From the IMG/VR virus record IMGVR_UViG_3300026229_000023, positions 1 to 51,220 of that record: a stretch of DNA of 51,220 nucleotides; one strand, written 5' to 3'. This DNA is from a virus (lineage: Duplodnaviria > Caudoviricetes). The stretch's first letter is position 1. Every line of letters begins with the position of its first letter. The position numbers were made by a program, and so were the translations under genes. The notes beneath the pieces were generated by a model, which saw nothing but the letters and a program-made list of their open reading frames with translations, was not told the DNA's origin and searched no databases. Below are positions 2,494-34,830 of the stretch, piece after piece.

Positions 2494-3249
2494 ATGGCCA
2501 AACTACTTCCGGTGCTGATCGCCTGCGAGTACAGCGACACCGTGGCGTCGGCCTTCCGCGCCTACGGCTTCGAGACGTACTCCTGCGACCTGCGGCCTAC
2601 CGAAGGCGACCCACGCTGGCACATCCAGGGCGACGTGCGAAACCACCTGCAGGCTGACCGCTGGCTGGCGATGGTGGCCCACCCCTACTGCACCTACAAC
2701 ACACTGGCCGGCATCCGCTGGATGTACCACCCAGACGACACCCTGCTGCCGCAGCCTGATCGCCGCAGGCACCCGAAGTATCCGAACCGGATGCGCGACT
2801 TCCCGGAAGGCGCACTGCTGTTCGCCAACTTGATGGCCGCGCCCGTGGAGTTCATAGCCGCTGAAAACTCAAAGCCGCACGGCTTGGCCATGAGCGTGCT
2901 TGGCCGACCCACGCAGACGGTGCAGCCATACGACTTCGGGAGCCCCTTCACCAAGGGCGCCACGCTCTGGCTCAAAAACCTCCCAGCGCTGGTGGCTACC
3001 CACACAATGGCGCAGGTGATCGAGCAGCACGGGGAGATCGTAGCGCGCTGCCATCTCATGCGGCCGGGTCCAGATCGTGAGAAAGAGCGCTCGCGATCAG
3101 ACCCCGCGATCGCTGCGGCGATGGCCGGGCAATGGGGCGAGCATATCCTTTCAACCATGGCATCCAGGCGTCCCTTTGTAGCTTTGCAAGTGGAGCCCAC
3201 TGGACGGTCGCAGTCACGATCATGCTTGACCAGAGGAGGCGCCGCTTGA
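2494..3249 (+). CDS. Small phage DNA cytosine methyltransferase-like protein
   Basis: VLIACEYS...AF...SCDLRPT, AHPYCTY (catalytic-Cys motif), AEN, QPYDFG, RSRS...IAAAMAGQWG; GGAGG RBS. Confidence 0.7.
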   Translation: MAKLLPVLIACEYSDTVASAFRAYGFETYSCDLRPTEGDPRWHIQGDVRNHLQADRWLAMVAHPYCTYNTLAGIRWMYHPDDTLLPQPDRRRHPKYPNRMRDFPEGALLFANLMAAPVEFIAAENSKPHGLAMSVLGRPTQTVQPYDFGSPFTKGATLWLKNLPALVATHTMAQVIEQHGEIVARCHLMRPGPDREKERSRSDPAIAAAMAGQWGEHILSTMASRRPFVALQVEPTGRSQSRSCLTRGGAA

Positions 3250-3461
3250 TCGGAGACGTTCTCCAATTTCAGGATCTCCAAGAACTGTGCAGGCCCGGCG
3301 AGCGCCCGCGGCTCGCGACCGTAGAGGCGTGGGCGCGCACTTGTGGCATCCGCTACAAGTACGACGGTAAGGGCGGCATCTGGACCACCGCAGCAGCAAT
3401 GAACGCCGCTCTCGGCCTGCAGCTGGCATCAAACGAAGCATATGGGACTGACGTAATCTGA
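3246..3461 (+). CDS. Excisionase-like / DUF4224-like small protein
   Basis: TTG start after GAGGAGG, overlapping upstream stop; LQELC...WARTCGIRYKYDGKGGIW; stop overlaps integrase ATG. Confidence 0.65.
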   Translation: MIGDVLQFQDLQELCRPGERPRLATVEAWARTCGIRYKYDGKGGIWTTAAAMNAALGLQLASNEAYGTDVI

Positions 3462-4609
3462 TGGCACCCCGACCGCGAAAGCACAACCCGTCCATACCCC
3501 CGCATATCGACCAAGCGAAGATCCCCAAGGGCGTTTACTGGGATGCGACTGGTCGTGGCCGCTGGTACATCTTCGAAACCGCAACGGGTATTGACGGCCC
3601 CCGGAAAGCTCGCCGAACGGTCGCAGGCCCGCAAGCCAAGCTTTCCGAGCTACACGCACTCATGGAAGCCGGAGAAGGAACCGGAACAGTTGAATGGGTC
3701 TGCACTCAGTACCACGACAGTGCCAAGTTCAAGGGGCTTGCGCCTGGCACACGCGCGGACTACGAGTCGGCGCGCAATGTCCTCCTGACCTACCCCACGA
3801 ACCTGGGCATGCCGTTCGGCAAGCTCCAAGTCAACAAGCTGCGGAACCACAATTTCCAACGCCTTGTTGATCGGATCGAATCGGCAGGAACACCCACTAA
3901 GGCAAACAAGGTGCTGCGCTACTCGCGGCTCGTGTTCCGCTGGGCATTGAATCGGGGCATAGTGAACCACAACCCTGCCCAGGGACTTGAGCAGGCGAAG
4001 GAGCGTAAGCGTCAACGCCTTCCTACCGATGAAGCCTATGCCAAGTTGATAGCGTTCGCGCGCGAACGCTCCATGCGGCCGGCTAGGACAGAGGGTTCAG
4101 TACCGCCATACCTATGGATGATCATGGAGCTGGGCTACCTTTGCAGACTGCGCGGCATTGAGACGCTCACGCTCACCGAAGCGCAAGGCACGCCTGAAGG
4201 CCTGCATACCAATCGCCGGAAGCGCAGTCGTGACAACCTGGTGGTCTGGACACCACGGCTACGAGCAGCTTGGGATGCAGCGACCGTGCGCCGTGAGACC
4301 ATCATTGACCGCCATAGCCTGCCGGTGCAGATGCGGGCCGACCAGCGCTACCTCTTTCTGGCAGAACACGGCGAGCCGCTGCATAAGACCAGCCTAGACA
4401 GCACTTGGCAGCGTTTCATTCAACTCGCTATCGCTACAGGGATCATCCTGCCTGAGGAACGCTTCAGCTTGCACGACCTCAAGCGGAAGGGCGGCACAGA
4501 CACTGCCGGTAACCGCGCAGAACGTCAGGACGCACTAGGCGTCACCGACGCGATGATGAAGGTCTATGACAAGAGCGTGCCGCGGGTGAAGCCTTCCCGG
4601 ACCGATTAA
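3461..4609 (+). CDS. int: Tyrosine recombinase (phage integrase)
   Basis: YLCRLRGIE (catalytic R), FSLHDLKRKG (HxxR), C-terminal VY; N-terminal arm-binding-like region PKGVYW. Confidence 0.9.
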   Translation: MAPRPRKHNPSIPPHIDQAKIPKGVYWDATGRGRWYIFETATGIDGPRKARRTVAGPQAKLSELHALMEAGEGTGTVEWVCTQYHDSAKFKGLAPGTRADYESARNVLLTYPTNLGMPFGKLQVNKLRNHNFQRLVDRIESAGTPTKANKVLRYSRLVFRWALNRGIVNHNPAQGLEQAKERKRQRLPTDEAYAKLIAFARERSMRPARTEGSVPPYLWMIMELGYLCRLRGIETLTLTEAQGTPEGLHTNRRKRSRDNLVVWTPRLRAAWDAATVRRETIIDRHSLPVQMRADQRYLFLAEHGEPLHKTSLDSTWQRFIQLAIATGIILPEERFSLHDLKRKGGTDTAGNRAERQDALGVTDAMMKVYDKSVPRVKPSRTD

Positions 4610-4656
4610 ACACAAACGAAGGGTCGGCTAAAAATACCAAGCCAGCGCTGATGAGA

Positions 4657-5499
4657 TCATACCCGCGCGCGCAACGCCTGAAGACGAGGCGCAAGGTCGA
4701 CTGCCAGACGTTCCAATCCTTCGGCGTTACCGAGATACGGCAAAAATCTATGGTGACGAAGATCGAACGGAACGTCATCTGCGTTTTGAGTGATCAGCAC
4801 AACCTCACGCCCAAACGCGTGCGCGATACCTGCTTCGTAGAAAACGTTCGCATTCTTACCAGTGCAATCGCATATCACGATCGCGGCTTGGTCGATCAGG
4901 TTCACCACATCCTGAATAACAGTCGCGTGGTCCCAGATGTTGTCAGCCCTTCTGCATTCAAGCCCAAGTGCCTGAGCCACCTCCCGAATCTTACGATACG
5001 TGGGTTCCAGAGCCGCTGTGAATGGCATCATGACCGAAACCAGGTTGGGATCAACGGCTTCTGGTGACGCCACGTCAAATGCTGTGGGCAGCCTGCGGGA
5101 TTGCCTCTGGTTTCGCACAATGAACTTGTACAGGTCGAAATCCTTGACCGCCCAGTGAGACCTCGTAAATACATTGAGGCCTATTTGCGCCCCAGAACGC
5201 CTCAAGGTCTCCCCAGCTATAGGAGGAATCGTTGCGTCGAAGCTGTACTCGATATGGATTTCTCTTCCGACCAGCCTTGCAGAGTGAATGTTTCCAACTC
5301 GAGCCGGCGGAAGGACGCCACCGTATGTCTCCTGAGCGAACAGCGCAGGGATGCTTTTTAGCTTATCGAGATCAGGATTACCGTTAGCGTCCGTGAAGGC
5401 GACTTCTACTGCATCCTCGGTATGTTCAAAAAGACGTGACAAGGAAATCTGCGAGCCACCGGCCGGCCATTCAGCCGTTGAGAAGAGAACGCTATACAT
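4657..5499 (-). CDS. Protein with C-terminal nucleoside 2-deoxyribosyltransferase/TIR-like domain; putative defence effector
   Basis: VSVMMPF...RRADNIW...IVICDCTGKNANVFYEAGIAHAFGREVVLITQ...VPFDLRHHRFLPY; start could be GTG 5511. Confidence 0.75.
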   Translation of the reverse strand: MYSVLFSTAEWPAGGSQISLSRLFEHTEDAVEVAFTDANGNPDLDKLKSIPALFAQETYGGVLPPARVGNIHSARLVGREIHIEYSFDATIPPIAGETLRRSGAQIGLNVFTRSHWAVKDFDLYKFIVRNQRQSRRLPTAFDVASPEAVDPNLVSVMMPFTAALEPTYRKIREVAQALGLECRRADNIWDHATVIQDVVNLIDQAAIVICDCTGKNANVFYEAGIAHAFGREVVLITQNADDVPFDLRHHRFLPYLGNAEGLERLAVDLAPRLQALRARV

Positions 5500-5612
5500 T
5501 GAAATCCCCACTACATCAGATTAAAGAATTTTCAATACTTTGAACCAACTGAAGCCTGGGCTACTGGCGACGGAGAGACTTCAACACAATGGTCCAGTTC
5601 TACAGCCTTAGA

Positions 5613-6578
5613 TCAGCTAACTTCCGCCTCCACGAAGTTCGGAAAGTACCGATACGTCATCCTATACCGCTCCACGTCCTTCATCGGCAGCCCAAGCGCA
5701 CAAAGATTATCGTTCGCACATGCATCGATTCTGCGCATCTCAGAAAACGTGAGCGATGGCGGATCGATAAAGTATGAGTCATCACCCGTTCGCGTAAACG
5801 GCAGTTGCTCAAAGGAAGCTGCCTTGAACTTCTCATCATCTTTCTTACTAAGAAGAACGCCACCGACCGTTAGCATCCGCGCGCCATCCGAGTAACGGAA
5901 ATTAAAGATCTGAAGATATGAGAAGGAGGCATCCTCTTGAACTTCCGTGTTGCGATTTCGAATTCCGTCCTCAATAGCAGCGTGTATTACAGCCCGAAAG
6001 ATGTCGCCGACTCTTCCTCCGTGGATGTCCGCCGCGGTCAACCCAGGAGGCAGGTGCTCCTCTCCCAACAAGCTCCTAGTAACATCGAGCATGTCGTTCA
6101 GACCTTCCTCTTCATCGATCAGAGCTTGGAGAGACTTCGCGTCCGCGTTCGCCGTTACCACGATGACAGATCCCGAAGGTGCCTTCTTCGCGACATACTT
6201 GATGTCTGTCAAGCAGGATTTATCTAGCAGACCATCATAATCAAGCCAGACCACAAGGGGGCCTTTGATCGCCATCCGCTGCAGAACAACATTGGAATGA
6301 CCAAATTGCATCTCAATCTGAGAAAATGGAACATTGAGAAGAAATCTGTTTTTGCTATGCTCAGCAGTAGTATTCTCGATACTTATCATGCGCTCAAAAC
6401 CTAACGAGCGATGAAAGAGACTGAAGTCCGCGAAATAAAGAGAACCCATCCCTACGTAGGTGTAGCCACTCACCTCATGAAAGTGGTTTAGCCTCCTAAA
6501 CGCCTCTGCCAACATCTTCCGTTCGATGCTCTTGCCAGGCCGGACGCGGTAGTCAATTTTCTTGTAACTGCCGGCCAT
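5613..6578 (-). CDS. Putative Rossmann-fold 'O-methyltransferase'-like protein
   Basis: IDYRVRPGKSIERKML, YVGMGSLYFADF, MISIE, VVWLDYDG, FRYSDGARMLTVG motifs; start overlaps ATPase stop (TAATG). Confidence 0.7.
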   Translation of the reverse strand: MAGSYKKIDYRVRPGKSIERKMLAEAFRRLNHFHEVSGYTYVGMGSLYFADFSLFHRSLGFERMISIENTTAEHSKNRFLLNVPFSQIEMQFGHSNVVLQRMAIKGPLVVWLDYDGLLDKSCLTDIKYVAKKAPSGSVIVVTANADAKSLQALIDEEEGLNDMLDVTRSLLGEEHLPPGLTAADIHGGRVGDIFRAVIHAAIEDGIRNRNTEVQEDASFSYLQIFNFRYSDGARMLTVGGVLLSKKDDEKFKAASFEQLPFTRTGDDSYFIDPPSLTFSEMRRIDACANDNLCALGLPMKDVERYRMTYRYFPNFVEAEVS

Positions 6579-7906
6579 TAGTCCCGCTCCCTCTCCAAGA
6601 AGTAATCAAAGGCGGCCTCACCCGCCCTCTTAGCACTAGGCACCTGAAAGAAGTCGCGAGCGAATTCAATATCTTCGATGCTCCTATCAAACTGTACTCT
6701 CAGTGTCTTTGGTGAGTAAACGATAGGTTTAGTGGGATATTTGAAGAGCGTAGATTTCTGCAATTTCGATATCTCCACCGGCTTGGCGCGATCAATGACT
6801 TTCTGAAGGAAGTTGTCTTCGGAGTCTTTTTCACCGGCAAGAGCATTCAAGAAATTAATTACTTGACGTAGCGCAGCGGTCATCTCCTGACGAGCCGACT
6901 GATACACTCGCGAATCGGTATCCACGCCGCTCTTGGAAGTATTCCAAGGCAGGGAACTCGCGTCGTCGCTCTCAAAAACAGCATAGCCCCGGAAGCGCGC
7001 AAACTGCTGATGCGCTTTGGGAGTCGAAAACTCTTCTTCTACCGTAGACCAGCCCGTCGTCGGCGACTTGTCTCCAGTAACGATCTGTCGGCCATTGCAT
7101 ATGATTGACCAGCCAGCATCCTCTATGTTTGAGGAGCTTATGCCGGCGTAGAGGGAAAGACGCACCGGCGAAGATTGACCTCGCGACTGATCAGCAGGAT
7201 AAATATACTCAGTGCGGAAGGGCACAAGCTCGTCGCTTTGCAAGAGAGTTGCCGCACGGTGACTCAATGAAAAGGCATTAACCTTTATGTCCAGACCAGC
7301 ATCCATACTGCTCGCATGCGCGTCCTGAATCCCTTTGATCAATGACTTTAGGAATATCGAAGATTCAAACTCCGAAGAGATTACGGAGTGCAGCTCCTCA
7401 ACCCTGATAACTGTCCCGCAGTCTGCGGGAGCATTGACCTGCCCCTCATGGACCTCGTCAAACGCTAGCTTCCAGACCTCATTTCCATCCTTATCCTTAA
7501 GTCGCTTCCATGCATCGACGTCGACAGTTAGCTTAAAAGAAGATTCGGAAGAAACAGACGACACCTCAAACTTCCGACCCATCTTGAAGAGTGCCCTCTT
7601 CATGCCGACGCCAAACTGTCCGATCGAGCCCTCCACATTAGGAGCGCCTGCCGCACGACCAAATCTAAATGCGTACTCGGCAGCAGTACTTACCGCCATA
7701 CCGCCGCAATTGTCAGAAATTGAGAAGGATTCAGCCGAAAGATTGAGCTGGACAGCCAACCCTTTAAAATCCCCATCTTTCCTAACGGAGCGTGCACCAT
7801 CTACTGAGTTATCGACCAAATCCTTTACTGCATCTAATAACGAGATATCTTTCGTGATGATGGAGATAAAAAAATCTTTGGTGGGAGACGCATCAATCTC
7901 TGCCAT
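6578..7906 (-). CDS. MORC-like GHKL ATPase (HATPase_c_3)
   Basis: DLVDNSVD (N box), ISDNCGGM (G1), IGQFGVGMKRA (G2), GTVI; S5-like NGRQI...LPWNTSKSG; no obvious nuclease domain. Confidence 0.85.
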   Translation of the reverse strand: MAEIDASPTKDFFISIITKDISLLDAVKDLVDNSVDGARSVRKDGDFKGLAVQLNLSAESFSISDNCGGMAVSTAAEYAFRFGRAAGAPNVEGSIGQFGVGMKRALFKMGRKFEVSSVSSESSFKLTVDVDAWKRLKDKDGNEVWKLAFDEVHEGQVNAPADCGTVIRVEELHSVISSEFESSIFLKSLIKGIQDAHASSMDAGLDIKVNAFSLSHRAATLLQSDELVPFRTEYIYPADQSRGQSSPVRLSLYAGISSSNIEDAGWSIICNGRQIVTGDKSPTTGWSTVEEEFSTPKAHQQFARFRGYAVFESDDASSLPWNTSKSGVDTDSRVYQSARQEMTAALRQVINFLNALAGEKDSEDNFLQKVIDRAKPVEISKLQKSTLFKYPTKPIVYSPKTLRVQFDRSIEDIEFARDFFQVPSAKRAGEAAFDYFLERERD

Positions 7907-7969
7907 AGTCCGTATCCGTACGAAAGCTGGGACGACAGTTTGGATCTCGATGACTGTTTAGCGCAAGCC

Positions 7970-9076
7970 CTAGTCGCGGAGATGGGTCTTCAGACGCCCC
8001 AACAGAGCTTCGGCAACTCCAGGGCTGACACTGTTCCCGATCTGACGGAACGAGTGCCATTTCGTATCATCGAACTGAAACCAGTCTGGGAACCCCTGAA
8101 GCCGTGCAGCCTCCCTTGGCGTGATCACCCGCGGGACTGAGAAATGTATAGGCCGAACAGCTTGGAAGCTGCCCCGGTCTGAGTTCGTCCCAGCCCTCAG
8201 CGTCGGGCAGAAGCCGTTAGGATTGAGCCTAGGCGCACGAGAAATGGCATCCGTTGCTCCAGGCTTGACCGCCCGAAACCGGCGAACGACCTCAGATTCA
8301 TGCACAGTACCCAGGTTTCCAGATATCCAGCCCTGTGCGATCCGCGCAAGGGCGTTAGCGTCCCCTACACCCTCCGGCACACGGGCCTTCAGCCGTTCCT
8401 TGAACTCACTATTTGTGATCCCCTCGCCGACCTTACGCCAGCCTTGCTCGACAGACTGCCAAGTCGGTCGAACTGCTGGCAGACCGGACAAAGCCTCACG
8501 GACGCTGACGGTGTACTGAAGCGGCGCAAAGAGCTCATCAGCGTCGATGTCCGTCAGCCGTTCGGGATCGTAGCCAACAAAGAACACACGCCTCCGAGAC
8601 GTTGGCACTCCAAAATCGGAAGCCACGACGATTCGTGGTGGAAGCATCCGGTAGCGGCTTGGGACCTGAGCCAAGGCATCCTCAACCTGCTGCTTGTTTC
8701 TAGGACTAAGAATGCCGGGCACGTTCTCAGCTACAAAGAATGCTGGATCAGATTCTCGCACCAGCCTGAAAAAGTGACCGAACAGGCTATTGCGCGGATC
8801 ATCGATCAGGCGCTTTCCGATAGTACTGAAGCCTTGGCATGGAGGTCCGCCGATAAGCCCGGAGATGGACGGCCGTTCGGCGGCATCTAACAGCTCTCGA
8901 CCAGACAGCGTAGCCACATCTCTGTCAGAGTGAAACGTCGTCGGGAAGTTGAGAGCATGCGCCCTCAAGGCGATTCTGTCCCATTCAAAGGCGGCACCTA
9001 TGTGGAAGCCAGCCCTAGCTGCGCCAAGACTCATCCCTCCAACGCCGGCAAACAGATCGACAATTACTGGTTTCAT
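7970..9076 (-). CDS. DNA (cytosine-5) methyltransferase
   Basis: DLFAGVGG (I), GGPPCQGFS (IV), AENVPG (VI), RRRVFF (VIII), ITPREAARLQGFPD (IX), IGNSV (X). Confidence 0.95.
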   Translation of the reverse strand: MKPVIVDLFAGVGGMSLGAARAGFHIGAAFEWDRIALRAHALNFPTTFHSDRDVATLSGRELLDAAERPSISGLIGGPPCQGFSTIGKRLIDDPRNSLFGHFFRLVRESDPAFFVAENVPGILSPRNKQQVEDALAQVPSRYRMLPPRIVVASDFGVPTSRRRVFFVGYDPERLTDIDADELFAPLQYTVSVREALSGLPAVRPTWQSVEQGWRKVGEGITNSEFKERLKARVPEGVGDANALARIAQGWISGNLGTVHESEVVRRFRAVKPGATDAISRAPRLNPNGFCPTLRAGTNSDRGSFQAVRPIHFSVPRVITPREAARLQGFPDWFQFDDTKWHSFRQIGNSVSPGVAEALLGRLKTHLRD

Positions 9077-9224
9077 AGATGAATGCTACCTCGGGAGACT
9101 CTCGCTGTCGATCGAGGCACCAGTGAGCCTTTTTGTTACGTAGCGTTCAACGATTCACCACAAAGAGACCGCCAGCCTTACCGAAAGATCTGCATCAATT
9201 ACGGAGGGAATTCTGGAGGTGATG

Positions 9225-9248
9225 AAAAAAGCGCCACCAGGGCGCTTT
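9225..9248 (-). terminator. Intrinsic terminator downstream of the tRNA-Lys 3' fragment
   Basis: AAAGCGCC-ctggt-GGCGCTTT hairpin with a T run on -. Confidence 0.75.
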
Positions 9249-9260
9249 AAGTCATTGATC
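9248..9260 (-). promoter_or_regulatory. IHF-like binding site flanking the att core
   Basis: GATCAATGACTTA matches WATCAANNNNTTR except at the first base. Confidence 0.5.
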
Positions 9261-9264
9261 GCAT

Positions 9265-9312
9265 TGGTGGGCCGTGAAGGATTCGAACCTTCGACCAAAA
9301 GATTAAAAGTCT
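9265..9312 (-). repeat. att core: 3' half of tRNA-Lys(UUU), from anticodon loop to CCA; not a complete tRNA
   Basis: AGACTTTTAATCTTTTGGTCGAAGGTTCGAATCCTTCACGGCCCACCA; D arm and 5' acceptor strand absent upstream. Confidence 0.9.
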
Positions 9313-9353
9313 GACGAAGAACCATTGCGGCACAAGGCTTTCACCCTGATTTC

Positions 9354-9426
9354 CGCTCCGCAACACCATCTGCAACGGCGCCCTGAAACCCTTGTGTGGA
9401 TTGGCGCCGTTTCTCGTTGCGGAGCG
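9354..9426. repeat. Nested inverted repeats near att (integrase arm-type sites or hairpin)
   Basis: CGCTCCGCAAC (9354-9364) / GTTGCGGAGCG (9416-9426) enclosing AACGGCGCC (9374-9382) / GGCGCCGTT (9403-9411). Confidence 0.6.
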
Positions 9427-9437
9427 CCCCAAAGCTC

Positions 9438-9782
9438 CTACCCAATCCAGCCGAAAGGCGGATCCTGGTCGGCCTTGGCCAGCCGGTTCCCCCGGACCTT
9501 CTCCTGCCATGCCAGGATCTTGGCCACATCCTCCCGCAGCCTGTCCTCGTGCCTGGTCACCCACAGCTCGGCCCCTGCCCGGCCCTGCTCGTAGCTGCTG
9601 CACCAGCGGAACGGCCCGCCGGGGCCATGCCGATGCCGGTCCAGCGAGGCGATCCAGATCCCGTCATTCACCCGCTGGGCCATAGCCACCACCCACACGC
9701 TGTGGCAGGCGATCACGGTCAACGAGTCATTCGGGAGGCTGGCAGACCTGGTCGTCCAGCGGAAATCGGCGGGGAGCTGCAT
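9438..9782 (-). CDS. Hypothetical prophage protein
   Basis: MQLPADFRW... Trp-rich 114 aa ORF at the end of the late region; start uncertain. Confidence 0.6.
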   Translation of the reverse strand: MQLPADFRWTTRSASLPNDSLTVIACHSVWVVAMAQRVNDGIWIASLDRHRHGPGGPFRWCSSYEQGRAGAELWVTRHEDRLREDVAKILAWQEKVRGNRLAKADQDPPFGWIG

Positions 9783-9881
9783 GGCCGGAAGGATACGACC
9801 GGCCGTCGCAGATCCTGCGAACGGGCCGGCCACCTACCTGAACTGTTTGGGCAGAGTCGAGCCAGGCTCGACCCTCGACCC

Positions 9882-11297
9882 TCACCCCCGCTCGGGGAAG
9901 GGATCGTTCGGGACGTCGAAGTTTCCGCCGTACCTCGCGACGTAGCTGGTCACGCGAGTGGCGTAGATTGTGCCGCGGAAGAAGGAATTGATCTTCTGGT
10001 CTGCCCCAATTCCGAGCTGCGAAACGCCTACCGTCGGGAATGTACGCTCGTTCGACCCGGCCCCTACACCGTTCAGGTAGGCCGTAACAATGTTGTCCTT
10101 TCGCTCAATGCAGACGTGTACCTTCTGCCCGACAGGCACGATGTGCTGCGACACCCACACGCCGCCGTTGTAGAAGCCCAACTGACCCGAATCGCCGATG
10201 TAGAGTCCTGTTGACCCGGCGGCAAAGTTGATGACGAACCCCCATGCAGGGTTGTACCCGGCCACAGTAATGAAAGCCTCGATGGTGAAGTCGGTCATAG
10301 CCGACTGACCCGGGAATGGCCCATCCGACCAGACCGACTGGCCGTCAACTGCCAGCGTGATCCCCCCGCCGACCTGAACAACACCGCCTTGCGCGTTCCA
10401 CGTATGGCCCTTTCCATCGTGGAAATCATCTCCAATGCCTTCGAAGTTCATGACGCTTACAACGTTGTCCCAGAACGGATCGACTTCGCCGAACAACACC
10501 CGGACTTTGCCTCTCCAGATTGCCGCTCGGCCCGCAGAGTCACTGACTTGCAGCGATACCGTGTACTCAGCTTCGTAGTTGATGCCAACTACAGCAACCG
10601 TATGGTTCCATTCGAATTCATCGACAAAGAGTGGTTTGTTCTCCCTGTATCGAATGCCATTGCTGGCAATGTTGACAGTGGTGGCACCGACCGGGGCCTG
10701 TCCTTCGACGGTGGAGTCGTACACAGCTCCCTTGCTCGCCGACATGACCCTATTGCCTTCCTGGGCTGATACGACTCCACCATCGGCGTTCCGATACTCA
10801 AGCAAAACTGACGCGCCAGCGTTCCCCTCTGCAGACGCGCCCTGGCGAACCTTGCATTTAGCGAGCGTCCTTTGCCCTGGATACACCGCATATCTAGCCG
10901 TGTTTGAAAGCACCGATTCACCACGATTGCTCGCGTACTCTCCCGACCACGCCCCCACGATCGGGCCAAGCGTAGTTACTGCCCATCCAGCCCCCCCCTC
11001 CCACGCGGCAGGACCACCCTCAAACCCGGGGTTTGTGATTGGTGCTGCCTGCGACTGAAAAGCAGGCCAAGTAAGAACAACCTCGGCAGTGGCCTGGTCC
11101 ACATACAGCTGATGGCCTGGGGGAAGGGTGTCGCCATCAATCTGCCTTACGCGGCAAGCCCCAACGCCATTCTTGATCTGCAGGCGGCTTTCGTATGGCT
11201 CCGATGGGCGCGCGGTATCAAAGGAACCCACGACAAGCAGCGCCAGGTTCTGTCGCCGCTGGTCAATGTCCGGGCGATCGTAGATCCGCGCACTCAT
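9882..11297 (-). CDS. Receptor-binding/tail-fibre protein with carbohydrate-binding-like and C-terminal LamG-like domains
   Basis: ITNPGFEGG...W (CBM-like); DPFWDNVVSVMNFEG...DFTIEAFI...HVCIERK...YLNG...RVTSYVARY (LamG); start overlaps upstream stop. Confidence 0.75.
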   Translation of the reverse strand: MSARIYDRPDIDQRRQNLALLVVGSFDTARPSEPYESRLQIKNGVGACRVRQIDGDTLPPGHQLYVDQATAEVVLTWPAFQSQAAPITNPGFEGGPAAWEGGAGWAVTTLGPIVGAWSGEYASNRGESVLSNTARYAVYPGQRTLAKCKVRQGASAEGNAGASVLLEYRNADGGVVSAQEGNRVMSASKGAVYDSTVEGQAPVGATTVNIASNGIRYRENKPLFVDEFEWNHTVAVVGINYEAEYTVSLQVSDSAGRAAIWRGKVRVLFGEVDPFWDNVVSVMNFEGIGDDFHDGKGHTWNAQGGVVQVGGGITLAVDGQSVWSDGPFPGQSAMTDFTIEAFITVAGYNPAWGFVINFAAGSTGLYIGDSGQLGFYNGGVWVSQHIVPVGQKVHVCIERKDNIVTAYLNGVGAGSNERTFPTVGVSQLGIGADQKINSFFRGTIYATRVTSYVARYGGNFDVPNDPFPERG

Positions 11298-12844
11298 CAG
11301 GACGCCCTCTGCCCGACCAAGTACACACGGATGCCTCGCGCGCCGGCCGTACCAATCTGATCCACATCGAAGGTGATTTCGTCTCCCTTTGCCAGTACCT
11401 CTCCACCGGCCACCAGCACCGGCGGCGTGGCCGCAGTGGTGGTGCTGCGCTCGTTGTTGTCGAAGGTCAGCTTCGTGGACAGGATGCTGGTCCCGTTCCG
11501 GTTGACGTCGACAGTCAGGGGCGTGCCTGATGCCTGCGCGGTGGACAGGGTGGCGTAGATGCCCCCGTTGGCCACCGTGTCCAGCAGCAGGCCGTAGGGC
11601 AGGACAATGCTGTCCTTTCCGTTGCCCGTGGCAATGTCAGTGGCCAGCAGCACCGTGCGGTCGATCAGCTCGAAGCACTGCAGGTCCGGCACCGACGCGA
11701 CCCGCAGCATGTCGCCGGCAGCCACCCAGGCGTCGCCATCCGGGGCGATGTTCGTCGCGCTGATGATGGTCCGCTGCGCCCGGGTCTTGGCCTCGAAACT
11801 GGCCGGCACGTTAAGCTGCCCGCCTCCCCCCTCGATAGCCAATGTTACCTGCCCCGCGCCCACCTGCATCACCGAGAAGAACTGACCTTCCTTCCAGTCG
11901 GCGCTACCCCCGGTGTTGGCTCGGATGGTCAGGGTGATCGGGCCAGCCGAGTTGGCCAGGATCAGCGTGTTGTGCATGTCCCCGCCCAGAGTGACGTTGC
12001 CGGTGACGCTGATGATTCGGGGTGCGACGGTGTAGATCGGCTGCTGACCGATCCAAGGCCGCGCGTAGCCGCGCAGGGTGGTGAAGCCGCGGACGCCGTC
12101 CCCGAGGGGCTGCAGGAACCTGATGGCGGGCGGTGCGCCGCTGACGCTTGGAACGATCAGGAATTCGCCCACGCCGTTGGCGTCGACCGGGCGGGATACC
12201 TTGTAGTTGCCCGAGTTGGCGGCCAGCTCCACCGCCGTGTCGTAGAACAGGGGATCCAGCACATCGGCGCCGCTCAGCGGGAAGTCGGTAACCTCGCCGT
12301 CGCCCTCAAACGTCCAGAACTTCGGCGCGATGCCGACGGACCCGCCTCCATTCTGGATCTGTTCGATCAGCACCAGCACGGTGCGGAAGTTCACGGCATC
12401 GGCGTCGCCCTTGGCATCCCCCACCCTGATGATGCGGCTCCCCTTGGCATCCCAGACGAACTCGCCGCTTTCCGGGTCTTGGACAAGCTGCATCCCGCTG
12501 TCGAGCAGCTGCTGCAGCTGCATCACCCGGTAGTCGAATGCGTCCTCATGGATTTCGGGCAGGAACGCGCCCTGATTGGTGATGTCGGCCGGCTGGTCCA
12601 GTGGCACCGTGCGCAGAATCAGGATGTCCAGGTTCAATACAGGCGCTGCGTTGAACGTGACGGTGCTGGCGTTCGCCCGAAGCCCGGTCACGGTGTACTG
12701 CGACGGCGGCACCAGGTTGTAGACCGGGTGCGTGCCGGTGAACACCTGGATGTGGCTGGACAGGAACGCCCTCGGCCCGTTGAAAGCGGTGGCGACGCCG
12801 TTCCCCACGTAGGTCTTGCGGCGGTCATTGGCGGAGATAGTCAT
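11297..12844 (-). CDS. Tail fibre / fibre adaptor with T7-gp17-like N-terminus
   Basis: YVGNGVATAF...ILRTVPLDQ...NQGAFLPEIHEDAFD...QLQQ, DADAVN. Confidence 0.8.
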   Translation of the reverse strand: MTISANDRRKTYVGNGVATAFNGPRAFLSSHIQVFTGTHPVYNLVPPSQYTVTGLRANASTVTFNAAPVLNLDILILRTVPLDQPADITNQGAFLPEIHEDAFDYRVMQLQQLLDSGMQLVQDPESGEFVWDAKGSRIIRVGDAKGDADAVNFRTVLVLIEQIQNGGGSVGIAPKFWTFEGDGEVTDFPLSGADVLDPLFYDTAVELAANSGNYKVSRPVDANGVGEFLIVPSVSGAPPAIRFLQPLGDGVRGFTTLRGYARPWIGQQPIYTVAPRIISVTGNVTLGGDMHNTLILANSAGPITLTIRANTGGSADWKEGQFFSVMQVGAGQVTLAIEGGGGQLNVPASFEAKTRAQRTIISATNIAPDGDAWVAAGDMLRVASVPDLQCFELIDRTVLLATDIATGNGKDSIVLPYGLLLDTVANGGIYATLSTAQASGTPLTVDVNRNGTSILSTKLTFDNNERSTTTAATPPVLVAGGEVLAKGDEITFDVDQIGTAGARGIRVYLVGQRAS

Positions 12845-12901: not shown

Positions 12902-15900
12902 TTACTGCTCGTCCTTGGGTCGGCGGTACATGAGGTATGCGGCCGCCTCCGCCGGGTTGTCCGGGGTGTACTGGCCGGTGCCGACGTCGTAGAGGTATTC
13001 GCCGGTGGTCAGCATCTGATTGCTGGGGATGCCGGTCAGCGGGCCGGCAGCACGCACGCCTGTCTTGATCAGCTTTTCCGCGTCGGGCTCGTCATCGTCG
13101 GCGATCCAGTCCCGGCCCTCCTTCCATGCCGTCTGCCCGAACTTCGCCAGCGCCACACCGGCGTCCACGATCGGGTTCGGACGCCCCATGCTTGGCTTGC
13201 CCTCGATCGCCGCATCGATGCCGCCAGCTACGTCACGCAGAAGCGGGATGGTCTGGAACGGGAACAGAATCGTTTTGCGCGCGAGCCAGGCGCTCCAGTC
13301 GTCCCAGCCCTTCTCGTCGTCGTCGCCACCGTCCGGGCCACGCATCATCAGCAGCTCGAACACCGCATTGGAAAGCACACCGGCAGACAACCAGGTGCCA
13401 AGCGCACGGGCCGGAGACTGCACACGCCCCAGGTACAGGCCGCGCAGACCTGATTCCTGCAGGCGGTTGTTCATGATGATCATCGGACCGATGAACATGC
13501 GCACCCACTTGTAGCGCGGGTCGCGCTCGGCCGCACTGAGGTCCTTCGGGGCACCAGCCTGCTGGGTCGTACGGATAGCCTTATCTGACAGGCGCACAGC
13601 CTCGTCGATTCCGACGCCCTGCGCCTGAGCCTGCTGATAGCGACCAAGCCAAATGGCACGCTCGGCCAGCGGCACCGTCCAGCGATGCACCTCCATGGCC
13701 ATCTTCATCGCCGCCGCGCGAATGCCGCGCTTCCCCGACAGTTTGCCTAGCACCACCTGATAGGACGAATCCAGCGAGTTGGCGCGTTCTTCCATGAAGG
13801 GCGACAGCGAGTGAATCATCTCGGTCATGCGGGCAGGGTTTCGGTAGTAGGCCGCGAAGCCAGTTGCCATGTACTTCGGATCTACACGTGCAGCCGCCTG
13901 GATCGGCGCCACGACGGTATTGGCGAACACCAGCGGCAGCCGGAAGCCCAGCGCGGCCACCGCCGTATTGGTCAGAACCGCGTCGCCGATCTTCTCGGCC
14001 ATGCTGGATCCCGGCTCGGACACCGACGCGCCGCGCACCGCATTCTTCACGCTCCCATGCAGTGCGTGATACGCCCCCTCCGACAGCCGCTGCTGGATCA
14101 GGTTCTTCAGCTCCTGGTCCTCCAGCACCCGCAGAGCCTGCTTCACGTAGCCGCGGTGCGAAACGTCGGTGATCACGTCATTGAGGTGACGTGACAGCAC
14201 GCGGTGGTAGTCCAGCAGCATCGGCGCCGCGTATTCGGTGCGCTCCTTGGTGTGGCCCTTGCTGGTCATTGCGCGGCTGAAGGTTCCGCCCATGATCTGT
14301 TCCTCCGCCGCCCGCGCCTGCTTGACGCCACCGGCACCCGCCCGGGGGTCGTACACCGCCGGGTAGTACCCGCCGCGCAGGCTGACCATCGAGCCATCGG
14401 CCGCGGTGAAGATCAGCGGCATCGGCTCGACCTGTTCGGGAGCAACGCCCGACAACCGGCGCTGCTGCTCCACGATGTCCGGCCACAGGCTGTTCACCGC
14501 ATCCCAGATGCCCTGCACCATCTGCGCGTCGGCCGGCGTGAGATGGCCGAGCATTTCCGCGATGTTCTGCGGGGTGAACTGGACCACTTCGGCGTTCTTG
14601 CCGATGAACCCGCCGCGCATCAGCTTGTTGCGGTTGCCCGCATTGCCCAGGTTCAAGGCCACCGCCACGATCGTGTTCTTCGACAGCGACCTTCCCAGGC
14701 TCGGCACGTACACCAGGCGGTTGAGGTCCGCCCGCTGCGCCGGCGTCAGGGCCTTCATCGTCTGCTCCAGCATGCCGCCGACGCGGTTGCGCAGCTCAAT
14801 CCGCTGCTGCTGCGCCGCCTCGGCCTGGTTCCAGAGGAAGTCGTGCCACGGCCCGATCTCGCCACCATCCAACCACTCGACGACCGTCTCCGGACGCAGC
14901 ACCCAGTCCATCAAGCCGGTGTAGGTCGCACCTACCTTCTGCATCGCGGTCAGGTCCGCATCGGAAAGCGGCAGCGGCTTGCCCTCGGCGATCGCTCCAC
15001 GGATTGCGCCGGCCAGCTCTGCCTGCGCGCTCTCCCAGTCGCGCTGGTCCTTGTTGCTCAGCAGCTTGTTCTTCAGCTTGGCCAGCCGCGCGATGTTGGT
15101 CACTGCGTCGTGCAGCTCGCGGAACTCGGTAATCGGCAGGTCGGCGTAGTTGGTCACGCTCTCGGCCTCGACCCTGGCCAGCAGCGCATCGCTCACTGCG
15201 GTGAGGTCATCGTCAGCCTGGCGCGCCTCCACCCATTGCCGCAGGCTCTGGCGGCGCGCAACGGCTCTGCCGGACACGTCGCGGAACTCGTAGGTGTCGG
15301 CGATGGTGTCCATGGCCTCCAGGTAGTCGGCGCCGGCCTTGCCCAGCCGCTCGCGAGCCTGCGGGGTCATCTGGCGCCGGATATAGCCGACCTTCGACTC
15401 GACCTCCTGCTGCACAGCGCGGGCTTCGGCGAACAGCACAGCGTTCAGGGCCTGCTGCCGCTTCGCTTGCAGGGCATCGGCAAACTTCCCCTTGGCCGCC
15501 GCCTGCGCCGCGGCGCGAGCAGCCTTTCGCTCAGCAACCAGGTATTCGTTTGGCCGGATCTGGCGCGCGGACTTCTCGGCCAGCACCGCCTGCGCAACGG
15601 CCTTCAGCTCGCGTCGGTTCGGCCGGGGCTCCTTGGCCAAGTCAGCCAGCACACCCAGTTCGCGCTCCAGCAGCTGGATCTTCCGGCTGCCGTGGACAGC
15701 ATCCAGTGCGCGCTGCGGCAGCGTGCCGTCGGTCATCGGCTCGCCGTGCCGGGCCTGCATGCGCGCGTCAGCCTCCGCGCTCACGCCTGCCAGGGTCTGC
15801 CGTACCGTCCACAGGCCCTGCACCAGCTCATCGGCGGAACTGAAGCCCAGCAGGGTGGCCACCTCTTCGGGATGAGTGCCGCCCTTGCGGGCGTAGACCC

Positions 15901-18895
15901 GGCCCATCTTGTCCAGCAGACCGTCACCGTAGGTCGCTGCCAGTACAGCGCGGTCCAGCTTCAGGCCCTGCAGCTGCTCCGGTACCGGCTCGCCGCCGGC
16001 TTCCTTTCGGCCGGTCAGCACGCGGTAGGCACGCACGATCGGCGTGGCCTCGACCTCCGCCTCGACTTCGCCGCGGATGGTGGCCAGCTCGTCCTTCCAC
16101 CAGCTCTCCCGCGCGCGCGCATCGGCTTCCTGCAGCTGCGCCATCAGGTCGGCCTCGGCCTGCTCGCGCGCCGCAGCAACCTGCGCCTGGTAGTCGGCGA
16201 ACTGGCGCTCGGTCATGCCCAGCGCCTGCGCTTCAGCCAGGTCGCGCACGATCGGCTCGAAGCCAACCCGGGCCTGTGCCGCCTCGATCTCTTCCTGGCT
16301 GGCCAGCATGCGGTCGAACACGCCGCGCACGTCGTCAGTCAGCTCCACGTCAAGATTCCGCAGGCTGCGGTAGACGCCGAGAATCCATTGCTTGAACTGG
16401 CTGAACACCGATTGCAGCTCCGGCGTGGGCGCCTTGCCTTCGCCCAGGTACGCCTCGAAGCCGCGGGCGAACTGTTCGTGCTGGTCGACACCGATCTGGT
16501 CCGCCGACTCGACCCCGAACCACTTCAACAGCGCATCGAGGTCGGAGCGCAGCTGGGGGGCGGCATCTTCGGCCGTGGCCACGTCCCGGTACACCTCCAG
16601 GAAGAAGTGCCCGGATTCGTGCAGGAAGGTGGACAAGTCGGCGCCCTTGAACAGGCTGATCTGCATCGCCCGGTCAGGGCCGATCTGGATCTGACCACGC
16701 GACGCGGCTCCCCCCTGGAACAGGATGTCCCCGGCCAGCACCTCGCGCGCAGCAGTATCCGGCAGCGCCACGCTCCAGGTTTGGCGCTGTCCCTCGATCG
16801 GGTCGTCCTGCACGATCTCGCCGCCGGTGCGCTCGGATTCCGTCCGCGCCTGATCCAGCGTCAGGAAGTCACGGGCCTGGCCCTGGTCGTCGGCCAGCAG
16901 CCACTGCCCGGCCCGCTGCACGTAGGAACTGCCTTCGCGCTCGATGGTCTGCTGGCCGCGGCCGTCAGTGGCCACCTGCGGACGTCCGAGCAGGCTGCGC
17001 AGAGCATCCATTCCCCGCTGCATCAGCGTGCGCGGCTGTGCCTCGGCGCCCTCTGCCGGCGCTTCAGCAGCATCGATGCCGGCCGCGTAGCGCTCGTACA
17101 GCGCCACCGGATCCTGTCCGGTGACCTCGCCCAGCCGGCCGAACATGGCGCCCCACAGCTGCGCCTGGCTTTCCGCCTGAGCGGGGGTGTACCGCTCGGT
17201 GCCGACCAGCTGCGCCATGACCGACTGCTGCACCTGCGCGCGGGCATTGGCCGCAGTCGCGTCCGGTGCAGGTGCATCCAGCGGCACACCCAGCTCGCGG
17301 GCCATTGCGTCGATGTCGAGCGCTTCCAGCTCCGCCGGTGACAGGCCGTCGGCCGTGGTACGGGCATTGCGCAGGATCTCGTCGCGGTTCGGCAGCCGCG
17401 GCACCGCAGCCATCCACTCCGCCATCGGAATCACGACCTGGCCAGTGGCCAGCTGCTCGGCCAGCGCCGACTCGCCGCCGACCATGTCCTGCAGCACCTG
17501 CGGTGCGGACTGGAACAGCGTCTGCGCCTGCTCCGCGTCCAGGTACACCCGTGCGTCCTCGCCGGCCACCTGTGCAGTCAGCGCCTTCATGTCCTCCGGC
17601 GAGCGCTCGCCCAGCTTCAGCTCTCCCGCAAGCTCGGTGGCGGCGCGCAGGCGGTCGTTGCTCTGGCCCGACTGCATCACCTGGTCCAGGCGCTCGTTGA
17701 TCCAGCGCACCTGCCCGGACGCGCGCGCGGCGCGGTAGTTGGCGTGCACTTCGACCGCACCGGTGGGAACCTCGGCCAGGCCTTCCATGATGATGTCGCC
17801 CCACTTCAGGCGTTCCTCGGTCAGCAGCTGCGCAGTGGCTTCGCCTGCGGCGCCGCCACCCAGCTGCAGGCCGGCCTCAGCACCGGTGCGCAGGACCGCC
17901 GAGGACGCGCTGCGGCGGGCGTTGTTGATGAAGTGGCCGGCTACACCGGCAGTCAAGGCATCGAAGATGCCGATGGCCACGCCCCGCTTGGCCGCCTTGT
18001 CGCGCGCGGCGGCCATCTTCTGCGGGTCGCGCAGGAACTGGCCAACCGCGTAGGCGTCGGTCGGGTCGACCTTTGCGTCCTGCATGGCGTCGGCGATGCT
18101 GGCGCCGAACTCTGTCAGGCCTGAACCGGTACCGGCCGAGGCAGCGGTCACCACACGGCTACCGCCACCGGTGGCCGCGGTCAGTGCCAGGCCCGGGGCG
18201 CCCATGCCGATCGACTGACCCAAGGTGACGGCAATGGCTCCCAGCGTGTCGGTGCCGCCGCCGGCCAGCTCCCGCACAGCACCGCCGAAACTGCCGGTCT
18301 TGTTCGCGCGGTCGAACGCCTGGAACCCTCGGTCGGTGCTGGCGCTGGTCACGTCTGCGGCCTGTGCACGGCGCTCCTGGTCGGCACGCAGTGCGGCTTC
18401 CTCCGCCGAACGGTCAGTGGTCAGCCGGCCGGTCGACGGGTCCATCACCGCTGGGCCATCGGGCAGCAAGGACAGCGCATTCGCCTTGCCTCGCTGCCAC
18501 CCGCTGACGATGCCGCCGATGACCTGCTCCAGGATGTTCGGCTCGGCGGTGGCACGGGCCTCACCGGTCACCAGCGAATTGGCATAGGTGGCCAGCTTCG
18601 GGGCTTCATCGCTTGCCAGCGCCATCCGGCGCGGATCGCTCAGGAAGTCGCCCACGTGCGGCGATGCCCGGCCGGCGTCGTCGATCTCCTGCCGCCGGGC
18701 GTCCTGCTCGTAGTCTCCAAGGTTAGCCGCCACCACGCCGAAGGGCTGGCCAAGCTGATCCGACAGCTGGTTCGCGCGCGCGGCTTCTTCCGGCTTCTGA
18801 CTGGTGCCGGTGTAGGTGCTGCGCAGCGTCACCTGCCGGTTGCTCTCGATCTCGTCCGACAGTTCGTCGAAGCCTTCCAGCACTTTGTCGATCAC
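12902..18895 (-). CDS. Large internal virion / DNA-ejection protein (1997 aa)
   Basis: Size, Ala-rich helical composition, position before tail fibre; ADLSTFLHESGHFF (HExxH) motif; GTG start overlapping upstream stop. Confidence 0.8.
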   Translation of the reverse strand: MIDKVLEGFDELSDEIESNRQVTLRSTYTGTSQKPEEAARANQLSDQLGQPFGVVAANLGDYEQDARRQEIDDAGRASPHVGDFLSDPRRMALASDEAPKLATYANSLVTGEARATAEPNILEQVIGGIVSGWQRGKANALSLLPDGPAVMDPSTGRLTTDRSAEEAALRADQERRAQAADVTSASTDRGFQAFDRANKTGSFGGAVRELAGGGTDTLGAIAVTLGQSIGMGAPGLALTAATGGGSRVVTAASAGTGSGLTEFGASIADAMQDAKVDPTDAYAVGQFLRDPQKMAAARDKAAKRGVAIGIFDALTAGVAGHFINNARRSASSAVLRTGAEAGLQLGGGAAGEATAQLLTEERLKWGDIIMEGLAEVPTGAVEVHANYRAARASGQVRWINERLDQVMQSGQSNDRLRAATELAGELKLGERSPEDMKALTAQVAGEDARVYLDAEQAQTLFQSAPQVLQDMVGGESALAEQLATGQVVIPMAEWMAAVPRLPNRDEILRNARTTADGLSPAELEALDIDAMARELGVPLDAPAPDATAANARAQVQQSVMAQLVGTERYTPAQAESQAQLWGAMFGRLGEVTGQDPVALYERYAAGIDAAEAPAEGAEAQPRTLMQRGMDALRSLLGRPQVATDGRGQQTIEREGSSYVQRAGQWLLADDQGQARDFLTLDQARTESERTGGEIVQDDPIEGQRQTWSVALPDTAAREVLAGDILFQGGAASRGQIQIGPDRAMQISLFKGADLSTFLHESGHFFLEVYRDVATAEDAAPQLRSDLDALLKWFGVESADQIGVDQHEQFARGFEAYLGEGKAPTPELQSVFSQFKQWILGVYRSLRNLDVELTDDVRGVFDRMLASQEEIEAAQARVGFEPIVRDLAEAQALGMTERQFADYQAQVAAAREQAEADLMAQLQEADARARESWWKDELATIRGEVEAEVEATPIVRAYRVLTGRKEAGGEPVPEQLQGLKLDRAVLAATYGDGLLDKMGRVYARKGGTHPEEVATLLGFSSADELVQGLWTVRQTLAGVSAEADARMQARHGEPMTDGTLPQRALDAVHGSRKIQLLERELGVLADLAKEPRPNRRELKAVAQAVLAEKSARQIRPNEYLVAERKAARAAAQAAAKGKFADALQAKRQQALNAVLFAEARAVQQEVESKVGYIRRQMTPQARERLGKAGADYLEAMDTIADTYEFRDVSGRAVARRQSLRQWVEARQADDDLTAVSDALLARVEAESVTNYADLPITEFRELHDAVTNIARLAKLKNKLLSNKDQRDWESAQAELAGAIRGAIAEGKPLPLSDADLTAMQKVGATYTGLMDWVLRPETVVEWLDGGEIGPWHDFLWNQAEAAQQQRIELRNRVGGMLEQTMKALTPAQRADLNRLVYVPSLGRSLSKNTIVAVALNLGNAGNRNKLMRGGFIGKNAEVVQFTPQNIAEMLGHLTPADAQMVQGIWDAVNSLWPDIVEQQRRLSGVAPEQVEPMPLIFTAADGSMVSLRGGYYPAVYDPRAGAGGVKQARAAEEQIMGGTFSRAMTSKGHTKERTEYAAPMLLDYHRVLSRHLNDVITDVSHRGYVKQALRVLEDQELKNLIQQRLSEGAYHALHGSVKNAVRGASVSEPGSSMAEKIGDAVLTNTAVAALGFRLPLVFANTVVAPIQAAARVDPKYMATGFAAYYRNPARMTEMIHSLSPFMEERANSLDSSYQVVLGKLSGKRGIRAAAMKMAMEVHRWTVPLAERAIWLGRYQQAQAQGVGIDEAVRLSDKAIRTTQQAGAPKDLSAAERDPRYKWVRMFIGPMIIMNNRLQESGLRGLYLGRVQSPARALGTWLSAGVLSNAVFELLMMRGPDGGDDDEKGWDDWSAWLARKTILFPFQTIPLLRDVAGGIDAAIEGKPSMGRPNPIVDAGVALAKFGQTAWKEGRDWIADDDEPDAEKLIKTGVRAAGPLTGIPSNQMLTTGEYLYDVGTGQYTPDNPAEAAAYLMYRRPKDEQ

Positions 18896-34751: not shown

Positions 34752-34830
34752 TGGTTGCGGGGGCCGGATTCGAACCGGCGAATCTCCGGGTTATGAGCCC
34801 GGCAGCCTGGACCTCTGGCCTACGCCCGCA
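34752..34830 (-). tRNA. Prophage tRNA-Met (CAU), initiator-like, encoded CCA
   Basis: Cloverleaf: anticodon arm CCGGG-CTCATAA-CCCGG, T arm GCCGG-TTCGAAT-CCGGC, 3' ACCA; one extra C in acceptor stem. Confidence 0.8.

Follow-up and report, generated by a model that had tools for sequence, protein, structure and literature searches.

A mobile three-gene cassette of a C5 methylase, a MORC-like ATPase and a PF20553 protein: a candidate restriction-like module in a temperate phage

We describe a three-gene cassette carried by a temperate, podovirus-like phage, IMG/VR record IMGVR_UViG_3300026229_000023. The record was analysed whole and is called the window here (51,220 bases, classed as a provirus, CheckV completeness 100). 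The cassette (5613-9076) encodes a C5 cytosine DNA methyltransferase, a MORC-like ATPase and a protein of the family PF20553 (Methyltransf_35). It shares the region between the integrase and the attachment (att) site with a fourth gene, and the region most likely represents two independent cargo modules, 5613-9076 and 4657-5499, in a variable integrase-att hotspot. The ATPase and the PF20553 protein form a conserved core, an obligate co-evolving unit that is probably translationally coupled, and their linkage is wider than the C5 methylase: the pair also sits with Dnd and DISARM genes. We place at about 55% the probability that the cassette is a restriction-like, mark-based module in which ATPase and PF20553 protein act on unmarked DNA without a classical nuclease. 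It is apparently an undescribed variant, within the searchable literature, of the MORC-associated systems that resemble restriction-modification (R-M).

The cargo consists of four intact minus-strand genes between the integrase and the tail-fibre genes. The features of the region are as follows.

3461-4609, plus strand: tyrosine integrase, 382 amino acids (Phage_int_M, 1.9e-7; phrog_1 integrase, 9e-33)
4657-5499, minus strand: gene 4 (probable gene, within an open reading frame of 4657-5511), TIR/NDT-like two-domain protein, 280 amino acids
5613-6578, minus strand: PF20553 (Methyltransf_35) protein with a class-I S-adenosylmethionine (SAM)-methyltransferase fold, 321 amino acids (PF20553, 1.7e-90)
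6578-7906, minus strand: GHKL and S5-transducer (MORC-like) ATPase, 442 amino acids (HATPase_c_3, 2.6e-12)
7970-9076, minus strand: C5 cytosine DNA methyltransferase, 368 amino acids (PF00145, 3e-56)
9197-9311, minus strand: att region, in which 9265-9311 is the 3' piece of a tRNA-Lys-like gene
9882-12844: tail-fibre genes, context beyond the att piece

An earlier note, made from the sequence alone, had reported four intact, co-oriented and AT-richer genes between integrase and att. The open reading frame calls and the base composition agree, with a GC content of 0.524 for 4657-9076 against 0.655 for the remaining window. By gene, the ATPase and PF20553 genes are lowest (0.50) and the methylase stands at 0.58. 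The TAATG coupling reported for the ATPase and methyltransferase-like genes is likewise present: stop and start share base 6578.

The distribution of the pair was surveyed in 80 PF20553 loci from one-genome-per-species contigs, the best 80 of 188 confirmed stretches, to which three annotated records were added (83 loci, L001-L083). Genes were called simply as longest open reading frames, which yielded a PF20553 frame in 80 of the 83 loci. In 78 of those 80, the gene immediately upstream of PF20553 is the ATPase, the exceptions being one locus split by IS66 and one 1.1-kb contig; the ATPase also stands beside the PF20553 match in the 3 loci where no PF20553 frame was called. The two genes overlap by 4 or 1 nucleotides in 41 of the 78 pairs. 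Divergence is correlated among all three proteins (r = 0.86 for PF20553 and ATPase, 0.46 for PF20553 and methylase, 0.53 for ATPase and methylase; Mantel test on pairwise distances, 41 cassettes, p = 0.001 each), with all three values inflated by shared ancestry. The IS66-split locus, L002 on Sinorhizobium meliloti pSymA, looks like a decayed copy: a transposase separates the ATPase from a shortened PF20553 frame of 253 amino acids (approximately 3300-6915), and the C5 methylase is five genes away.

Pair loci span many bacterial phyla and the archaea, and occurrence is sporadic: PF20553 was found in 4 of 401 genomes sampled from a single phylum, a count that includes the genome on which the sample was centred, and in none of 14 control genomes. 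The family, which varies little in length, comprises 2230 clusters at 50% identity, and the best 150 of the 2230 representatives measure 263-453 amino acids; no longer proteins scored that could be fused forms, which is weak evidence on fusion. Phage-borne cases are rare, namely two IMG/VR contigs and the Pseudomonas filamentous phage PfAC20, all of which carry methylase, ATPase and PF20553 together. A DNA-level search with the cassette gave no match in phage records or Escherichia coli genomes, and a metagenome scan with the single PF20553 protein gave none either.

The company kept by the pair is dominated by genes that mark DNA. A C5 methylase lies within four genes of it in 45 of the 80 loci, and Dnd genes lie within the same distance in 27 (by Pfam: DndA-type desulfurase, DndB, DndC, DndD, DndE and a DndE-ATPase fusion). 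An annotated DISARM operon on a Microvirga plasmid holds the pair between its MmeI-like methylase and drmA. Partner type is clustered on a quick maximum-likelihood tree of PF20553, with 12 changes against 28.8 in shuffles; one 15-member clade is entirely Dnd-linked, and the window falls in a C5-linked clade beside a Stenotrophomonas locus. Across the 80 loci, we found no recurring nuclease or helicase cluster near the pair (a ResIII helicase cluster is present in 3), and no other type of neighbour with unassigned role in more than 5.

Two side observations come from the same loci. At L073:12440-14170, a second, longer GHKL ATPase (576 amino acids, 2e-27 to the window ATPase) directly follows the C5 methylase, beside the usual one. 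The cyanobacterial loci L041, L043 and L068 form a tight clade of pairs with no DNA-marking gene within four genes, and the pair may be solitary or repurposed there; in Anabaena (L041 and L068) a GlmS-like amidotransferase adjoins it together with glycosyltransferases or a polysaccharide deacetylase, and the neighbours in L043 (Symploca) have no Pfam match.

This linkage bears on whether the three genes belong together at all. They could be unrelated adjacent cargo, an orphan anti-restriction phage methylase beside genes of other function, as the presence of two further phage methylases and the GC of the methylase (0.58, against 0.50 for the pair) might suggest. Yet methylase and pair are adjacent in 45 of 80 loci, across many phyla and with correlated divergence, and we regard this as the least probable of the readings considered. 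A stronger rival is that the pair is an accessory or regulator of DNA marking, which loads, targets or times the methylase or the Dnd machinery, or is itself a second methylase. Marking genes of three chemistries do neighbour the pair, the DISARM and Dnd clusters that enclose it have their own logic, the PF20553 protein keeps SAM-type motifs, and no nuclease was found. However, C5 methylases of this kind normally need no helper: enzymes like that of Protein Data Bank entry 3g7u stand alone, and the window methylase aligns with it over its full length. Moreover, in 45 of the 80 loci conservation extends to the pair and one methylase and no further, and the cassette is mobile and sporadic, in a slot that in a relative, the metagenome contig L090, holds a defence candidate. 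We judge an accessory role unlikely, although it is the foremost of the alternatives.

The C5 methylase matches TIGR00675 (2e-45) and the PADLOC model MTase_II (9e-96), and because its alignment with the solved stand-alone enzyme 3g7u runs end to end (3e-112), it has no extra domain. It is probably the marking module of the cassette.

The ATPase belongs to HATPase_c_3, a MORC-type Pfam family, and matches phrog_20521 (6e-70). Its model (predicted local distance difference test, pLDDT, 91) consists of a GHKL domain and an S5-type transducer and ends in a short helical tail (333-442). Foldseek matched this model to Hsp90/TRAP1, ParE and DNA-bound MORC2 (TMq 0.45-0.50; 0.50 for MORC2) and found no nuclease domain in it. 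The window protein has the GHKL ATP-binding motifs and the S5 transducer with its conserved lysine, as in MORC and paraMORC proteins, and the ATP-site columns are kept in all 35 aligned homologues (D/E29, N33, D36, D65, G69, G96, G99, G101 and transducer K325). Against solved structures, the ATPase profile retrieved GHKL proteins alone, and weakly (E about 0.02). PADLOC returned a weak match to its MzaB model. In NCBIfam, MzaB scores 36.1 bits, against an equivalog cut-off of 850, and the GHKL domain alone is matched.

The PF20553 protein is predicted to adopt the class-I SAM-methyltransferase fold, of the seven-strand Rossmann type (pLDDT 83), and a structure search of the Atlas agrees. In an exhaustive comparison, the best structural match was the tRNA guanine methyltransferase Trm1 (3axt, Z 14.1, 219 residues aligned), followed by RNA base methylases (RlmO-, RlmI- and RsmD-like) and then generic methyltransferases; with 7-13% identity, these are matches at the level of the fold. 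Structure comparison revealed no nuclease fold in the model, and the PF20553 profile had no sequence-level match among solved structures. Across 79 sequences, seventeen residues never vary, among them G43, G45, D51, D113, D125, D231 and E280, and E68 and D115 are kept in 78. G43 and G45 belong to the glycine-rich loop that follows strand 1, and strands 2 and 4 are each followed by acidic residues. The protein looks like an active SAM-methyltransferase-fold enzyme, and from their conserved motifs both members of the pair look catalytically intact. Prediction of an ATPase-PF20553 complex scored 0.29 and 0.00 against a mark of 0.32, and was used neither for nor against binding. Beyond the family, feature-based Atlas neighbours are clusters with PF28273 (PP_RS20740-like; score 0.89-0.90) and structure-based neighbours are several unnamed phage protein clusters (TM 0.54-0.57); both groups may be distant relatives.

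The resemblance to RNA methylases raises another alternative, in which the pair is a guard. It would monitor the marking system, and upon anti-restriction inhibition or loss of SAM the PF20553 protein would methylate host RNA or another target and stop growth, as an abortive-infection toxin. Guard modules embedded in R-M loci are known, such as PrrC within a type I system. The closest structures of the PF20553 protein are indeed tRNA and rRNA base methyltransferases, and its active site does not vary with the marking chemistry. Nonetheless, toxicity is unsupported, the structural matches are fold-level at 7-13% identity, and the ATPase resembles DNA-clamping GHKL proteins, with DNA-bound MORC2 among its top matches. 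A guard is, in our view, quite unlikely.

A restriction-like reading must account for interference in a set with no apparent nuclease. The earlier note had remarked on this lack, and the profiles bear it out: no PD-(D/E)xK, HNH, PLD, Vsr or other nuclease family was found in the four proteins with Pfam, PADLOC or NCBIfam. At the level of folds, the two predicted models concur; this check covered the ATPase and the PF20553 protein, not the N-terminal domain of gene 4. The sole nuclease-family match in the window is an HNH endonuclease gene at 21713-22447 (minus strand), inside the virion module and positionally unrelated to the cassette. The note had also been unable to match the set to a named system, and neither could we with PADLOC 2.0, NCBIfam and the searchable literature. 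PADLOC 2.0 has no model that matches the PF20553 protein, and over the 7 proteins of 3461-12844 it returned methylase models, weak MzaB, the TIR effector and, for the integrase, two weak Cas11a matches, and nothing else. The name PF20553 or Methyltransf_35 appears in no paper of the searchable literature, a scope outside which lie subscription journals, supplements and REBASE. Nor is the pair described in the accessible portions of seven articles (PMC2292703, PMC10853773, PMC11878078, PMC7549136, PMC12839542, PMC8011034 and PMC12137116) or of three preprints (10.64898/2026.09.30.754977, 10.1101/2025.09.30.679545 and 10.64898/2026.05.01.722283).

Comparison with known systems delimits the cassette. 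With classical type II R-M, it shares a DNA methyltransferase (PF00145, MTase_II); the cognate restriction endonuclease gene was not found here. The nearest precedent is the prediction by Iyer, Abhiman and Aravind in 2008 that prokaryotic MORC and paraMORC GHKL ATPases belong to R-M operons, in which, according to the accessible text, SFII helicases occur in approximately 70% along with nucleases of the REase, HNH, HKD and Vsr types (PMC2292703). Those operons resemble the cassette in placing a GHKL and S5 ATPase beside DNA methylases, mostly cytosine-specific, on mobile DNA, and the role proposed for families that were experimentally untested there is ATP-driven DNA manipulation in self/non-self discrimination (PMC2292703, same portion). 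The cassette differs in having no linked SFII helicase or nuclease, and in a methyltransferase-fold partner that goes unmentioned in that portion of the article.

Likeness to DISARM and BREX lies in a core that works with different marking enzymes. BREX-type interference proceeds without a classical restriction nuclease. In PADLOC, the four proteins did not match DrmA, DrmB, DrmC, PglZ, BrxC or BrxL, and the C5 methylase alone matched methylase models (DrmMII and DruM). The cassette has three genes against five or more in DISARM and BREX, and the Microvirga pair is an insert in a DISARM operon, not a DISARM component. DISARM classes use adenine or cytosine methylases, as stated in the available part of the Tiamat preprint.

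Dnd systems pair phosphorothioation with DndFGH or other restriction partners, and it is inside dnd clusters, where a restriction partner is expected, that the pair occurs in 27 of the 80 loci. Unlike these, the window region has no dnd core genes (DndCDE), and the pair is unrelated to DndF, DndG or DndH. The words MORC, GHKL and HATPase are absent from the accessible text of a paper on Dnd restriction partners (PMC10853773). Cores that operate with different marks have precedents, in the available parts of the sources, in Dnd-type systems (PMC10853773) and DISARM (Tiamat preprint). As for the Trm1-type and other class-I RNA base methyltransferases, the PF20553 protein shares their fold, including part of the C-terminal domain (Z 14.1), but identity is at most 13% and its genomic context is DNA marking, not tRNA.

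We propose the following mechanism for the cassette as a restriction-like module. The C5 methylase would mark both the lysogen's DNA and that of the phage. The ATPase would dimerise on ATP in the manner of MORC or MutL and clamp or scan DNA, and together with its obligate partner it would act on DNA that lacks the mark. Interference could come from ATP-driven clamping or blocking, from SAM-dependent chemistry by the PF20553 protein, or from both, and not from cutting. In this manner, the pair would serve as a portable, mark-agnostic core that elsewhere plugs into Dnd phosphorothioation or DISARM. A bolder form of this idea makes the pair a universal nuclease-free reader-effector for any marking chemistry (5-methylcytosine, phosphorothioate or DISARM adenine methylation), which silences unmarked DNA by clamping or compaction plus SAM-dependent modification; we consider it doubtful.

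Several points weigh against the restriction-like interpretation. No phenotype is recorded for any member of the pair family, and the absence of nuclease and helicase leaves "restriction" without a demonstrated effector. The active-site residues of PF20553 are the same in C5-linked and Dnd-linked members, which argues against the PF20553 protein itself as the reader of the mark. The DISARM operon is complete without the pair, which fits an accessory role as well as a core one. In 8 of the 80 loci there is no marking gene within four genes, although the 1.1-kb contig is among these and, in two others, a C5 methylase stands five genes off. The phage carries three methylases in all, and phage methylases could also serve anti-restriction. 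Finally, promoter and terminator scans of the region did no better than shuffles.

If the cassette does defend, it would be a very compact mark-based immune system, with three nuclease-free genes in 3.4 kb and a core that works with three unrelated marks. It would also offer a tractable bacterial model for MORC-type ATPases on methylated versus unmethylated DNA, and give a role to PF20553, a Pfam family presently named by guess. Were the universal reader-effector true, it would represent a bacterial and archaeal forerunner of eukaryotic MORC-type methylation-linked silencing and a new form of restriction without cutting. The cassette also explains annotations of "incomplete R-M": in the accessible part of the PfAC20 report, the phage's cassette was scored as incomplete R-M by PADLOC, which detected the cytosine methylase alone (PMC11878078).

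Gene 4 is an independent, stand-alone one-gene module. Translation probably begins at the ATG at 5499, downstream of a GGGGA ribosome-binding site, and its homologues measure approximately 280 amino acids. The C-terminal 90 residues carry a weak NDT match (PF05014, 0.002, 18.6 bits, below the 28.8-bit cut-off), and this domain matches the PADLOC CBASS-type TIR effector model at 1e-7. Within the family, NDT appears below the cut-off in 16 of 20 members and the TIR effector in all 20 (best 5.5e-11), the latter over only about 66 residues. E222 is invariant in 20 of 20 sequences, within a strongly conserved stretch, and we infer a catalytic role for it. Atlas neighbours, to be taken as leads only (scores 0.76-0.83), are TIR_2, CAP12-PCTIR_TIR and NDT clusters, and the gene-4 profile had no match among solved structures. 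Gene 4 is most likely an abortive-infection-type effector that cleaves NAD+ or nucleotides, with a sensor-type N-terminal domain and a TIR/NDT-like domain of the N-glycosidase type.

The gene-4 family, of likely one-gene effectors, has no name and is large, with 1243 hits, and 108 plasmid records. On plasmids, homologues stand alone beside AbiE toxin-antitoxin genes, insertion sequence elements or an integrase. Elsewhere, the N-terminal 140 residues are joined to ordinary TIR domains, as on E. coli F plasmids: an annotated 303-residue TIR-domain protein of an E. coli IncF plasmid (L086:4001-4912) has 33% identity to the gene-4 N-terminal domain over residues 5-151, and therefore this domain is combined with different TIR-like effector domains. 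Gene 4 resembles Swarozyc/DUF4062 and CBASS TIR-like effectors in having a TIR/NDT-like domain, a conserved glutamate and an auxiliary domain in one protein on mobile DNA, but compared with Swarozyc, as set out in the available part of the preprint, its domain order is reversed (auxiliary domain N-terminal) and it does not match DUF4062 (bioRxiv 10.64898/2026.05.01.722283). DUF4062 was not found in any of 20 family members (E <= 0.1), and we rejected gene 4 as a Swarozyc on this ground.

The earlier note had cast the four genes as one linked system with gene 4 as its possible effector. Co-orientation, low GC and a spacing of just 113 nucleotides between PF20553 and gene 4 speak for a single system in which the TIR/NDT-like protein acts as abortive-infection effector, and the paraMORC4 family is fused or linked to TIR domains (PMC2292703, accessible text). 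In addition, the clusters of the PF20553 protein (100% identical) and of the gene-4 homologue (89%) both list a longest contig of 19,790 bases, and the two may co-occur on a single further related contig. The linkage data are of a different tenor and largely refute this reading. Gene-4 relatives occur in none of the 83 pair loci and neither of the two viral pair loci (0/85; phmmer, E <= 1e-3), and conversely the ATPase, PF20553 and C5 methylase occur in none of 80 metagenome gene-4 loci, 35 of them at least 8 kb long. The homologues that stand alone on plasmids, and the swap described below in L090, point the same way. What stands of the earlier proposal is that methylase, MORC-like ATPase and Rossmann protein are a conserved linked set; gene 4 falls outside it, and a four-gene system is very unlikely.

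L090, the related metagenome contig and the closest of the 80 gene-4 loci, provides a decisive view of the slot in another state. Its att piece is 85-90% identical to that of the window and present as two direct-repeat copies, its gene 4 has 88% protein identity, and its integrase is reduced to the 3' part (90% over 169 residues) with no full-length copy. The order of att piece, gene 4 and integrase 3' part is the same as in the window, but between att piece and gene 4 lie two genes that match the PADLOC candidate defence system PDC-M53A (2e-14) and PDC-M53B (8e-36). PDC-M53A/B thus replaces the cassette beside a retained gene 4, and therefore the slot is a cargo hotspot with cassette exchange. 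Two block copies in the contig (L090:4428-6290 and L090:13397-15251), 79-95% identical and approximately 9 kb apart, each end in a tRNA-Lys-like piece. Between them lie PDC-M53A/B, gene 4 and the truncated integrase, with no intact tRNA in the 16.8 kb covered; the arrangement looks like tandem related integrative elements.

In the window itself, 9265-9311 (minus strand) reads as a 47-nucleotide 3' fragment of a tRNA-Lys(UUU)-like gene, spanning the anticodon loop through to the CCA end. What the earlier note called the "tRNA att site" is this fragment, which recurs as a direct repeat in L090, and not a tRNA gene; ARAGORN and Rfam called no tRNA at this piece, their sole call being a tRNA-Met. 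A 32-mer of the att piece is unique in the window, which holds no second att copy. Pairing of the att piece with the tRNA-Met at 34.7 kb was considered and rejected, the sequences being unrelated. Despite the provirus class, integrase, cargo, att piece and tail-fibre genes form one unbroken block mid-record, in circular-phage order and not split at att; this may reflect a non-integrated or tandem form, or wrongly called record ends.

The rest of the window has the following landmarks.

9882 to approximately 32,500, minus strand: tail fibre, tail tube, internal virion, giant virion protein and large terminase genes
34752-34830 (approximate), minus strand: tRNA-Met (CAT), between structural and replication modules (ARAGORN, Rfam)
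37855-39354: DnaB-like helicase

The two further DNA methyltransferase genes, 2494-3249 (plus strand; phrog_757, 2e-41) and 49833-50993 (plus strand; phrog_363, 1e-74; C5 type), both have normal phage GC and bring the total to three methylases. In the virion module, a 1997-residue protein at 12902-18895 (minus strand) matches phrog_9880 over residues 718-1995 (E = 0); since an internal virion protein and an endolysin-type protein of 746 residues adjoin it, it is probably itself a giant ejection or internal virion protein.

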